Numbered from the stretch's first letter, positions 1 to 19,585 are shown. The stretch is 19,585 nucleotides of DNA from Candidatus Vampirococcus lugosii (GCF_018420025.1 NZ_JAEDAM010000014.1:1-19585); one strand, 5' to 3'. Numbers and translations: made by a program. Notes: generated from the sequence alone by a model not told the origin.

Positions 1-1
1 A

Positions 2-1132
2 ATGAATTTTGAACATGTAGAAATAGATTGATCTTGAACTATTGATGTTAATTGAGATTGAAATATTAATGCTGATAATGAAGTTAAGGTTTGAACTAAT
101 GTAACAATTAATGAATCTTGAACTATTGATGTTCAATGAGTTTGAAATATTAATGCTGATAATAATATAACTGCAGGTAGTCAAGTTAATGTTTGAGGTG
201 ATGCTGTTAGATTAGATAGTAGTTGAAATATAAGAGCTTTTAATAATATAATAGCTAATAATTGAAATATAATAGCTAATAATTGAGATGTAAAAGCTAG
301 TAATGAAGTTAAGGTTTGAGGTGGTGCTGTTACATTAGATAAAGATTGAAATATTAATGCTGGTAATGAAATTAAAGTTTGAAGCAATATTACACTTAAA
401 AGTAGTTGAAAGATTAGTGGTATTGGGTTGGAGTGACATATCATAACAGATGATATAAATATTGATTCAGATAGTATAGCTGGATCAGCTCTGGCAGTAG
501 CAAAAGTTCAAGAAAATACTATGGCTCTTAGTGGGAATATGGATATAATCCATAATGATTTAGATAGTATTGTAACTCGGACTAATAGTCTTGAAATTGA
601 TTGTCCAACTACCAAAAATTGAAGTGGTTTTGTTACAGATGTTGGTTTATGTACAGTTAATAATACTGTAACATGAGTACCAGCACCTATAAGTACTTTA
701 CCATATATTACAACTTGAACAACAGCACCAACATGAGGTTCTTTTACTTGTTGAAGTGATTCAAGAAATTATGATTGGGATGATAATTGAACTTCTTTTG
801 GAGGCGATCTATGTGATGCATGAAATCCAACAAACACTTCTCCTTCATTTCCACTAGTAATGAATGGTACAACTTCAACACGGGAATGTAAAAACACTAT
901 ATGACAAAGCACAACATGTACTGCTTCAAAAACAAGTGCTGGTTTTAATCCTACTAAAGAAAATGACTGTACTATTTGAATTGATAATGGTTATCTAAAT
1001 AATACTCAAAAAGGAGCTTGTAAAATTTCTTGTGATATGGCTTCTAATCCTAATAATGATCCTATTGTATGTAGTATAACTCCAAGTGTATGTAAAGGTC
1101 CACGAGGCAAAGCATGTAGTGATTTTAATTAA
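2..1132 (+). CDS. 5'-partial large surface protein. It has beta-helix-like G/N/V-rich repeats, then a short heptad-like neck, then a Cys-rich C-terminal domain. Putative adhesin or fibre.
   Basis: Under table 25 the frame starting at nt 2 is open from the window edge to TAA at 1130-1132, checked codon by codon. The translation shows repeats such as SGTIDVNGDGNINADNEVKVGTNVTINE and SGTIDVQGVGNINADNNITAG. The last ~175 aa contain 12 Cys. The ATG at 2 is probably internal. Confidence 0.75.
32..166 (+). repeat. Imperfect 84-bp tandem repeat inside the fibre gene. It encodes the 28-aa beta-helix unit.
   Basis: tcttgaactattgatgtt[a/c]aatgag[a/t]ttgaaatattaatgctgataat occurs at 32 and again at 116. 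A shorter 21-bp duplication (atagctaataattga) follows at about 251-290. Confidence 0.7.
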
Positions 1133-1153
1133 TTTTATTAAATAAATTGAAAT

Positions 1154-1705
1154 ATGAAATTTTTATTATTTTTTATTATTTTTTTGTTTAATCATATTTT
1201 TGTATTTTCAAATACATATAATCAAATAATAGATATAGAATCCGAATATAGAGAAATAGAAACAGAATTAGAGCAAAATCAAATAAATGAAATTGAAGAT
1301 ATTGCTAATAAATTTAAAATTATTTTAAAAGGTATGACTGATATAGATTTATTAATGAATGAATTTGATCATATGAATTGAATATATAATGAATTAAAAA
1401 ATAATAAAAACGAAAAATATAAAGATAAATTATATAAAACAGCAGTTTTAAAAAAAATTCAAATAATTTATCTTGAAAGAATAAATGAATTATTGGATAT
1501 TGATGATCAAAATATTACAAATCAAAATAATTATACAAATAATATAAACCAAGAAAGTCAAGAAAATATAAATCAAAATAATCAAGAAAAAAATATGGAT
1601 TGAAATTATATATATTTTACAACTTTTCAATTAGTTTTGATAGTAGCTATAATTTTGTTATCTATGTTTTGATTTTTTGTATTTATGTTTTATTATTTTA
1701 GATAA
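1154..1705 (+). CDS. Hypothetical bitopic protein of 183 aa, with an N-terminal signal peptide, an acidic/Asn-rich coiled-coil-like ectodomain, and a C-terminal TM anchor.
   Basis: ATG 1154 is the first start after an in-frame TAA at 1139-1141, and the frame is open to TAA at 1703-1705 when 3 TGA codons are read as Gly. The N-terminus is MKFLLFFIIFLFNHIFVFS and the C-terminus is FQLVLIVAIILLSMFGFFVFMFYYFR. The track ORF 1154..1381 is its first fragment. Confidence 0.7.
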
Positions 1706-1744
1706 TAAAATATTTAAATTTTATATATTATAATTAATTAAAAA

Positions 1745-2911
1745 ATGGTATTTGAAAATTTTGATAAAAGAGAAACACAAAGAGGAATAGATGAGCAAGA
1801 TCAATGAGTAGAACAAAAGTTATCTAATGAAGAGATTGAATCTTTTGGGAAAAAAAGACAAGAAGAACAAGAAGAAATAAGAGAACAAGAACAAAGTTAT
1901 ACTAGAAATAAAAATCCAGAGTATCAAGAACAAATACAACAATGAGCATCTGATGCATATTGAGTTCCTAGATCTGATCCTGATATACAAAATTTAACTC
2001 TTGATAATTGAGAAAGTTCATGAGATATAGAATTAAGTGATTTTGATAATATAAATAATTGAGAAAATATAGAATTATCTGAAAAAGATCCATCTAGAGT
2101 AAATTTTGATAGACAAGATATATTGGAAAATCTTGATTCTAGTAAAAGAGATGAAATTAATAGTAAAATCTCAGAAATTGCTTGAGAATTTATGCAAAAT
2201 ACTAAAGATCCTATTGATAATATATGAGATTTATTCAAAATTTTATGAGATACAGTAAATAAATTACTTACAGAACTTGGAATTAATTTTGATACTTCTT
2301 GAAATAGATGAGATCCTAATGCTGTTTCAAATTTTTCTTATTGATGAGGTTTTTGAAAATTTGATTTTGGAGATTTGCCACCATGAGCTTGAATAAATTG
2401 AAAAGATTTTATTTTGGATAATGAAAAATTATTGGAACAATTTTGATTAGATTTGTCTTCTATATGAGTTGATCAGTATAGACATAGTTGAACATCACCT
2501 TTATGTGCTAGGACAACTAGATTAACTTTTGAAAAAAATTGAATTAATGTTCCAAATTGACATGCAAGAGATTTATTTGCACAATTTAAATCTAGTTCTT
2601 GAGAAATTAGATGAGCTGATGTATGACCTTATTTATTAAATCAAGTTTCTTCTTGAAATAATTTTTTTGATTTAACAATGTGTAATTATGCAAATAATCG
2701 GGATCCTAAATGAACTTCATGATATCATAGAGTTCCTGCTATTTTATGAAATGATTGAGTTTTGTATGTAAGTGATCCATATTATTGACCTCAACCTGCC
2801 CCTGATTGATGGAATAATAAAAGTGCTAATCGATATCCTTTGGCAAATCATCCACATATACAAAAACCTAATGCTATTTTTGCAGTAGGTCCTTCTCATA
2901 GCAAAAAATAA
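1745..2911 (+). CDS. Hypothetical 388-aa protein. It has an acidic low-complexity N-terminal half and a C-terminal region with a possible papain-fold (CHAP/NlpC-P60/transglutaminase-like) Cys-His-Asp arrangement.
   Basis: Open from ATG 1745 to TAA 2909-2911 under table 25, checked line by line. It contains many TGA=Gly codons, for example YGGGFGKFDFGDLPPGAGING. Candidate catalytic motifs are SPLCARTTRL (Cys codon 2504-2506), NGHARDLF, GYHRVPAIL (His codon 2726-2728) and YVSDPYY. No N-terminal signal peptide is visible. Confidence 0.7.
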
Positions 2912-2942
2912 TTATTTTTTATAATACATTATGATTTTTATT

Positions 2943-17380: not shown

Positions 17381-17400
17381 TTTAAAGTAATGTAAGTTAA

Positions 17401-17429
17401 AAAATGGTAATTATAAATTGCCATTTTTT
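17401..17429 (+). terminator. Rho-independent terminator candidate after the SLH protein gene.
   Basis: A stem pairs aatggtaat (17403-17411) with attgccatt (17417-17425), with 2 G-C pairs, 1 G-U pair and a 5-nt loop. It runs into a T tract at 17424-17429 and is preceded by an A-run. Confidence 0.55.
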
Positions 17430-17519
17430 GATTATTTAATAAAATGTATGGATAAAGCTATAAAAAAGGATTAAACTCATCTTTTTAAGAAAAAATATTT
17501 AGAATTAATTTAAATTTCA

Positions 17520-18587
17520 ATGAAAAAAACTATATTAATAACTTGATGACTTGGATATATATGATCGCATGCAGTTATAGAGTTTGTAAAGTCTTGATAT
17601 GAAGTTGTAATAATTGATAATCTATCAAATACAAATATATGAGTGCTTGATAATATTGCCAAAATTATAAATTATAAACCAAAATTTTATGAAATAAATT
17701 TGATTAATAAAACTTGACTTAAAAATATTTTCTCAAATCATAATTTTGATGGAGTTATACATTTTGCATGACTTAAAGCTGTATGAGAAAGCTGTAAAAA
17801 TATTTGACTATATCATAATAATAATATAGTTTGAACTATAAATTTGTTTGAAACAATGGAAAAATACGGAGTAAGAAATATTATTTTTTCTAGTAGTGCT
17901 ACTGTTTATAAGGTCAATAGTGAAATTAATACTTGATTGAAAGAAACGAATCTTACATGAGATACTAGCAATCCATACGGTACTACCAAATTTGTAATAG
18001 AACAATTACTAAAAGATTATAAAAATCATAAATCTTGGAAAGTTATAAATCTTAGATATTTCAATCCTATATGAGCTCATACAAGTGGACTTTTGTGAGA
18101 GAATCCAAATGGCATTCCAAACAATTTGTTGCCATATATTATGAAAGTAGCAACTGGAGAATTAAGTGAAATATGAGTTTTTGGAAATGATTATGATACT
18201 GTAGATGGAACTTGAGTAAGAGACTATATAGATGTAATTGATCTAGTAAGATGACATTTGAAAGCTTGGGAGTTAGTTGAAAATCAAAATACTAAAGGTA
18301 AAATGGAAAAGAAAAAAGTTGAAAGTAAAAACAATGGTTTCTTTGAAACTTTTAATTTGTGAGTATGAAAATGAGTTTCAGTACTAGAAATGATAAATAT
18401 AGCAAATAAAGTTGTATGAAAAGATATACCATATACTATAAAATCAAGGAGATCTTGAGATCTAGCAATAGTGTATAGTGATTCAAGTAAAGCAAATAAA
18501 ATTCTATGATGGAAAACTAAAATAAGTACTATGGAAAGTATTGAAAATAGTTGGAAATTTTATAAAAAATTAAAGATTAAAGATTAA
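17520..18587 (+). CDS. galE: UDP-glucose 4-epimerase, 355 aa.
   Basis: The translation starts [22 protein letters not shown], a Rossmann GxxGxxG motif in which three Gly are TGA. It also contains the catalytic SNPYGTTK (YxxxK), LRYFNPIGAH and DGTGVRDYIDV. Checked line by line, with TAA at 18585-18587. Confidence 0.93.
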
Positions 18588-18625
18588 AATTCCTCTTTCC
18601 CCTTTTACCTTTCAACTTTAAAACT

Positions 18626-19585
18626 ATGAAAAATATTCTAGTATTAAATTATGAATTCCCGCCACTGTGATGAGGTCAAGCAAATGCAAATTATTATCTT
18701 TTCAAAGAATTTTCAAAATTTTCTGATTATGAATTTACACTAATAACTTCTAGTACAGATAAAGAATATTATCAAAATTTTTCTAATAATATAAAAATAT
18801 ATTATCTTGATATAAATAAAAATTGAAAAAATTTTCATAATCAATGAATCAAAAATTTATTAAAAAATGCATACAAAACTTATAAACTTGCAAAAAAACT
18901 TATAAAAAAAAATAATTTTAATTATATAATGTGCTGGTCCTACCCTGCTATATGAATTTGATATAAATTAAATAAAAAATACAATATTCCATATATCACA
19001 CTATTAAGATGATCAGATGTACCTTTTTATGAACAAAAATGGAAAAATCTTGATAAATATATATTTCAATATCTAGCTCCAAAATTTTGGAAAAATTCAA
19101 AATATGTAATAGCAAATTCAGAACAATTAAAAAATTTAGCATTAAAAATATCACCAAAACAAGATATACAAATCATAACAAATGGTATAAATTTGGAAGA
19201 ATTTAAAAACACTTGAAATAAAAAAGACAATAAAAATTTTAATATACTTTTTGTATGAAGACTTACAGAAAGAAAATGAATACTAGAATTAACAAAAGCA
19301 TTTAAAAATTTTGCAAAAGATAAAGAAGATATAAAACTTAATATAGTTTGAGATGGTTGACTTTATGAAGAAATAAAAGAATATATTGAAAAAAATAATC
19401 TAAATAATAAAATAATTTTACACTGACTCATAAATCATAATAAAATAAAACAAATATATCATCAAAATGACATATACATACTTCCAAGCTCAAATGAATG
19501 AATGAGTAATACTTTACTTGAAGCACTTGCAAGCTCTTTACCTGTTATTATAACGGATGTAGGAGGAACAAAAGAACTTTTTGAT
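18626..19585 (+). CDS. GT4-family (GT-B, group 1) glycosyltransferase, 3'-partial, with 320 codons in the window.
   Basis: The translation starts MKNILVLNYEFPPLGGGQANANYY and ends ...SSNEGMSNTLLEALASSLPVIITDVGGTKELFD, which matches the E-x7-E type motif region. It starts 38 nt after galE with no intervening terminator. Confidence 0.88.

Follow-up and report, generated by a model that had tools for sequence, protein, structure and literature searches.

UGA as the majority glycine codon and CGG and CGA as candidate tryptophan codons in a contig of Candidatus Vampirococcus lugosii

Which amino acid is specified by TGA in a contig whose genes are crowded with in-frame TGA codons, and does one published code table account for all of its codons? 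We addressed this question for a stretch of 19,585 bp from Candidatus Vampirococcus lugosii (GCF_018420025.1, NZ_JAEDAM010000014.1:1-19585), which was analysed as a whole and to which we refer as the window. Judging from alignments of the encoded proteins, UGA is almost certainly an ordinary glycine sense codon in this organism and only UAA and UAG act as terminators. This reading is textbook knowledge for the lineage, Absconditabacterales/SR1 within the Candidate Phyla Radiation (CPR), and has already been published for the genome itself. Moreira et al. (2021, Nat Commun 12:2454; PMC8080830; PRJNA678638) state that UGA encodes glycine in V. lugosii, predicted its coding sequences with Prodigal and table 25, and describe a 1.3-Mb genome with 38 tRNA genes belonging to an epibiotic predator of Halochromatium. 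A first-pass annotation of the window, made from the sequence alone, had called the code not new, which is correct and even understated given the genome paper. It had also placed the contig in an episymbiotic or predatory CPR lineage, in agreement with the described lifestyle and with Candidatus Absconditicoccus praedator as the closest named relative (GyrA 70% and TypA 76% identity). Its further claim that table 25 dictates every other call did not hold: tryptophan appears to be the meaning of CGG, and probably of CGA, instead of arginine, and eight codons of the window are affected. Table 25 is thus probably incomplete for V. lugosii.

The GC content of the window is 22.9%. When TGA was read as a stop we obtained just 11 open reading frames (ORFs) of at least 100 amino acids, 4.4 kb in total. 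Several of them are fragments on the antisense strand and not one represents a complete gene with a family assignment, so the earlier statement that no conserved gene is intact under this reading was borne out. When TGA was read as sense, 17 genes covered 91% of the window. Pfam families were assigned with TGA masked as X and the assignments were unambiguous. A stop codon is present in 16 of the genes: 15 end in TAA, one (the MscS homologue mscS) ends in TAG and none in TGA. The same tally had been given before; the 17th gene is secE (9786-9971). In-frame TGA codons number 294, are found in 16 of the 17 genes and make up about one codon in 20 (5% of codons). Glycine accounts for 6.9% of the residues if TGA and GGN are both counted and for 1.9% if GGN is counted alone.

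For the alignments we again masked TGA as X and compared eight proteins of the window to solved PDB structures, with one reference for each protein and all references from organisms using the standard code. PDB chains were chosen because many database homologues are table-4 translations that carry a W at the TGA columns. Across the 145 TGA columns the reference residue was Gly in 92 cases, Ala in 16, Ser in five and Trp in none. Glycine occupied 75% of the GGN columns and 2.9% of all other columns of the same alignments; against the latter background rate the observed 92 of 145 has a binomial p of ~1e-102. The BLOSUM62 likelihood over the 145 columns favoured Gly over Ala by a factor of 10^64 and over Trp by a factor of 10^124. 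We then have the 64-codon table computed from the same alignments, in which the codons with at least 10 columns keep their standard meaning with two exceptions: TGA was assigned to Gly, and TCA (30 columns) was a tie, with Ala and Ser only 0.6 log10 units apart in favour of Ala, an insignificant difference. TGG was assigned to Trp and AGG to Arg. The TGG codons that align to Trp are those of W19 and W93 in NusG, W295 in MiaA, and W173 and W331 in GalE, as expected from the earlier remark that TGG is still used for Trp.

Every family-assigned gene has in-frame TGA at conserved glycines. For gyrA we found TGA at the invariant glycines at 3201-3203 (DVRD-G-LKP) and 3324-3326 (HPH-G-D), for galE at 17544-17549 and 17562-17564 (T-GG-LGYI-G-S) and for miaA at 6302-6304 and 6311-6313 (V-G-GT-G-LY). 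Tandem TGATGA pairs occur at 16331-16336 and 16340-16345 in the context R-G-gg-G-gg-A, within the hypothetical surface protein gene hyp15. All of these coordinates had been reported correctly in the first-pass annotation, and its hand count for gyrA (about 40 TGA among about 48 Gly codons) was close to the 41 of 48 that we counted. Its view of TGA as the preferred glycine codon is also supported: TGA accounts for 294 of the 409 Gly codons of the window (72%). The share is 69% if only columns with Gly in the PDB homologue are counted, which means that TGA is used freely at critical glycines. Moreira et al. call UGA an 'additional' glycine codon, whereas here it is the majority one; those passages of their paper that are retrieved by keyword mention neither a UGA majority nor a possible reassignment of CGA and CGG. 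A slightly different codon choice was seen for the two ribosomal protein genes rplA and rplK (7105-8299), for which TGA makes up 17 of 31 Gly codons compared to 277 of 378 in the other genes (Fisher p=0.037, marginal). The lower TGA share of L1 and L11 hints weakly at a preference of highly expressed genes for GGT.

The dominance of TGA is not special to V. lugosii. We counted codon usage in the loci around typA and gyrA in three relatives and detected the following TGA shares among the Gly codons: 83% in GCA_964483725.1 (GC about 23-24%), 72% in A. praedator (GC 28%) and 68% in GCA_964394325.1 (GC 27%). The examined genes of all three relatives use only TAA and TAG as stops. High TGA usage in code-25 bacteria has been noted before (PMC10746230). 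It would fit a mutational pressure towards AT in a codon family that otherwise consists of GGN. The sequence CAZACQ010000011.1 of GCA_964483725.1 is labelled 'uncultured Candidatus Peribacteria bacterium', a label that looks wrong or very coarse; with a TypA identity of 79% (tblastn) this genome ranks directly behind A. praedator-like genomes among the species-level relatives of the window.

There are several other ways in which so many in-frame TGA codons might be explained. The most familiar is table 4, in which TGA encodes tryptophan (Mycoplasmatales including Mycoplasma, Entomoplasmatales and several insect endosymbionts). It shares with the window the change of UGA from stop to sense in an AT-rich, reduced genome, so the low GC content and the in-frame TGA codons with TAA/TAG stops fit it equally well, and protein catalogues do carry W at TGA positions, as in the TypA copy of a Logan assembly and in many homologues. 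Those W residues are a gene-calling artefact. The amino acid differs as well: Trp is absent from all 145 columns while TGG aligns to Trp separately, and we consider a tryptophan reading of TGA extremely improbable. Scarcely any credence can be given to the idea that TGA is still a stop, with the genes being pseudogenes or being expressed by read-through or as selenoproteins with selenocysteine. It has the default of the standard code in its favour and nothing else; it would leave the proteins with an implausibly low glycine content and 16 of 17 genes interrupted, no gene terminates in TGA, and the codon occupies glycines with catalytic and structural roles in gyrA, typA, rplA, rplK, nusG and galE. 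An excess of TGA generated by sequencing or amplification deserves mention as the genome was assembled from multiple displacement amplification (MDA) and MALBAC products of whole-genome-amplified consortia (PMC8080830). Two Logan assemblies that were built independently from other runs match the window with 99.92% identity over 11.0 kb and 100% over 2.3 kb, none of the nine differences affects a TGA, and the three related genomes show the same TGA pattern. The chance of such an artefact is next to nil.

The glycine reading of UGA leaves the question whether the rest of table 25 applies. Table 25 (Rinke et al. 2013; Hanke et al. 2014) agrees with the window in UGA as Gly, in UAA and UAG as the only stops and in UGG as Trp. 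It keeps CGA and CGG as Arg, whereas the alignable CGG codons of the window behave as Trp. Both codons are rare: in ~5,940 codons we counted three CGA and five CGG (5 and 8 per 10,000 codons), two CGT, no CGC, 138 AGA and 10 AGG, so that AGA carries most of the arginine. The two CGT codons, GyrA 244 and NusG 111, are both found in conserved genes, and the aligned residue is Arg in each case. The sole CGG in a conserved gene is codon 136 of typA (12757-12759), for which E. coli BipA has Trp at the aligned position. The counterpart of this codon is TGG in all three Absconditabacterales relatives, including A. praedator, which is annotated with table 25. The second alignable CGG is codon 319 of hyp3 (2699-2701), a hypothetical gene for which a first homologue search returned hyp3 itself only and a full HMMER scan returned one homologue (L042); in the DNA of this homologue the codon is TGG. 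Scans of metagenomes with the hyp3 alignment and with the C-terminus of hyp15 gave no match. If the CGR codons are included, eight of the 40 candidate Trp codons of the window are already CGR.

The relatives contribute further sites. In one of them CGA occupies the Trp of the 'DNFW' motif of alanyl-tRNA synthetase (AlaRS), which is invariant in the Aquifex and human structures. CGA was also observed in a Mur ligase, where the position is Tyr, and in UppS, where it is Thr/Phe/Ile, with two species sharing the site in each case, and no CGA was found on an Arg position in the alignments of the relatives. As to the tRNAs, arginine identity is given by A or G at position 73 together with A20, and G73 alone does not discriminate. 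The tRNA(UCG) of A. praedator (L037:7415-7488) shows A1:U72, G73 and G20, and the neighbouring tRNA(GCG) shows A20 and A73. Both assignments were made by hand; the minimum-free-energy fold of the tRNA(UCG) gave no cloverleaf, and because the cloverleaf was drawn by hand the identity elements read from it carry less certainty than those of a tRNAscan call would. By the rule of Shulgina and Eddy (PMC8629427) the tRNA(UCG) would be classed as Trp-like and the tRNA(GCG) as Arg-like. The same authors (2021, eLife 10:e71402) predicted with Codetta that CGA and CGG encode Trp in Absconditabacteria, and a Nucleic Acids Research paper of 2026 treats this as the Absconditabacterales code. The window resembles the Codetta prediction in its very low GC content, the dominance of AGA among Arg codons, the rarity of CGA and CGG, the retention of CGU as Arg and the CGG codons at Trp positions, to which a relative adds the Trp-like tRNA(UCG). 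The prediction is a genome-wide inference, whereas here we have a handful of codons. Taken together, the alignments make it likely that CGG is read as Trp in V. lugosii, and for CGA the same reading appears somewhat less likely.

Several observations weigh against the account of the code given here. The reference residue differs from Gly in 37% of the TGA columns. The corresponding share for GGN is 25%, and the two would be close enough to reflect variable sites, yet the non-Gly share is not zero. The window contains no tRNA gene according to ARAGORN, and no release-factor gene was seen among the Pfam assignments of its proteins. For CGR as Trp, the support within the window consists of two CGG codons (two of two alignable sites). 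The single alignable CGA of the window, codon 363 of hyp3 (2831-2833), pairs with Pro and is uninformative, the column of TypA codon 136 varies among bacteria (E 41, R 38, W 29) and one CGA in a more distant relative with 40% GC (L002) pairs with Glu. Much of this can also be claimed for an unaltered NCBI table 25, in which CGA and CGG keep their arginine meaning: the two CGG sites are few, Arg is accepted in the TypA column of other bacteria and neither of the CGA pairings involves Trp. Table 25 was moreover used to annotate the genome, and the deposited proteins show Arg at CGR. The deposited hyp3 product (MBS8121767.1 / WP_213348591.1, Ca. Vampirococcus lugosii), which matches our translation in 388 of 388 residues apart from two masked as X, has Arg at both CGR sites. 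We nevertheless consider an unmodified table 25 unlikely. Both alignable CGG codons are TGG in relatives. The CGA codons of the relatives fall at the invariant Trp of AlaRS and at positions that are aromatic or hydrophobic, and none falls at an Arg, whereas both CGT codons in conserved genes do align to Arg. The tRNA(UCG) of a relative combines G73 and A1:U72 with the absence of A20, and two papers already treat CGA and CGG as Trp codons of the Absconditabacterales.

A code with UGA as Gly and CGR as Trp could have arisen and could be maintained as follows. The glycine identity elements of a tRNA(UCA) are G1:C72, C2:G71, G3:C70 and U73. A tRNA-Gly with this anticodon would read UGA and release factor 2 would be absent, both as suggested by published work on the clade and not by the window itself. 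We found no Rfam match anywhere in the window, and the anticodon UCA occurs in none of the 13 tRNAs of the A. praedator locus L037 (CP054059). In this locus a cluster of 11 tRNA genes (4386-5779) adjoins rpsT, and the tRNA(UCG) gene is separate. Extreme AT pressure (23% GC) may then have replaced the majority of GGN codons by UGA, which is richer in AT. CGG and CGA would probably be read as tryptophan by a tRNA(UCG) or tRNA(CCG) with Trp identity, and CGU would stay arginine, which would result in a working code of 'table 25 plus CGR=Trp'. The two changes might even be connected. As UGA makes up 5% of codons, an abundant tRNA-Gly(UCA) with U34 could risk misreading UGG, and this risk could favour a shift of Trp codons to CGR; both steps are speculative. 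It is rather doubtful that the whole of this holds, namely that the working code is table 25 with CGG and CGA as Trp, that the deposited proteome has Arg where the cell inserts Trp and that the changes are possibly linked.

The choice of the table has direct consequences for annotation. Translation with table 11 shatters every gene of the contig, and table 4 writes Trp at ~5% of the residues. Table 25 is right for UGA and probably writes Arg for Trp at CGG and CGA. Homology searches and profiles that are built on table-4 entries will carry false Trp. The TypA copy of the Logan assembly has W at 34 of 34 TGA positions of typA (11374-13164), and W was seen in 7-63 of 120 homologues depending on the TGA column, in line with table-4 gene calls. 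The contig adds one organism, an observed predator, to a clade with a published prediction of CGR as Trp. What it contributes beyond the literature is in-window support for CGG as Trp only, which is itself a published prediction at the level of the clade.

The individual genes are as follows. On the plus strand the window starts with a hypothetical 5'-partial gene (2..1132) without a Pfam family, whose product is repeat-rich and Cys-rich; it has 26 in-frame TGA codons, a TAA stop, and CGR codons at 578-580 (CGG), 881-883 (CGG) and 1103-1105 (CGA). It is followed by a hypothetical gene with hydrophobic stretches at both ends of the product (1154..1705, three TGA, TAA stop) and by hyp3 (1745..2911, 32 TGA), which is listed as 'Peptidase C39-like domain-containing' in UniRef and contains the CGG and CGA described above. 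Next come gyrA (3081..5474; 41 TGA and seven GGN, with the CGT codon 244 at 3810-3812), a gene for a small hydrophobic (membrane) protein (5536..5868), which with no TGA and six GGN is the sole gene without TGA, and miaA for the IPP transferase (5945..6907, 12 TGA). The minus strand carries rplA (L1; 7105..7788; nine TGA, nine GGN, TAA stop), rplK (L11; 7856..8299; seven TGA, five GGN), a hypothetical gene with a weak SLH-domain match under the Pfam cut-off (8324..9148, 10 TGA), nusG (9200..9784, 11 TGA), secE (9786..9971; 61 amino acids, one TGA, TAA stop), for which the call was taken from an identical Logan contig, the MscS-family channel gene mscS (10129..11217; 12 TGA and the only TAG stop) and typA/bipA (34 TGA, 18 GGN). 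The remaining genes are again on the plus strand: a hypothetical gene for an Asn/Lys-rich membrane protein (13412..15214; 15 TGA, CGA at 14417-14419), hyp15 for a hypothetical surface protein with a C-terminal SLH domain (15539..17380; 44 TGA, CGG at 17243-17245), galE for UDP-glucose 4-epimerase (17520..18587; 23 TGA, including those of the Rossmann motif given above) and a 3'-partial gene for a GT4-family glycosyltransferase (18626..19585, 14 TGA).

Three of the hypothetical proteins (2-1132, 8324-9148 and 15539-17380) resemble cell-surface components. One of them has NINA-type repeats and a Cys-rich C-terminus and two have SLH-domain matches; one of the latter also shows GY repeats and an acidic tract rich in Asp, Asn and Gly. 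V. lugosii has been described as having an 'elaborate cell surface', with which these proteins are consistent. The comparison with the Logan assembly SRR13241708 (L033) revealed nine differing positions in 11 kb. Seven of the nine lie in the gene of the SLH-domain surface protein hyp15 (15886-16756) and four of those seven are amino-acid changes, which suggests that strain variation is concentrated in a cell-surface gene.

With TGA as sense a long ORF also stays open antisense to typA (11630-12982, plus strand), and similar ORFs are found opposite gyrA. Such spurious antisense ORFs look 'conserved' between species because the sense gene is conserved. They also explain a signal that we rejected: in a codon-pair tally across the relatives AGG appeared to pair with TGG, as if AGG had been reassigned too, and this signal was traced to spurious antisense ORFs. 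In the real genes of the window AGG aligns to Arg or Lys at five of five sites.

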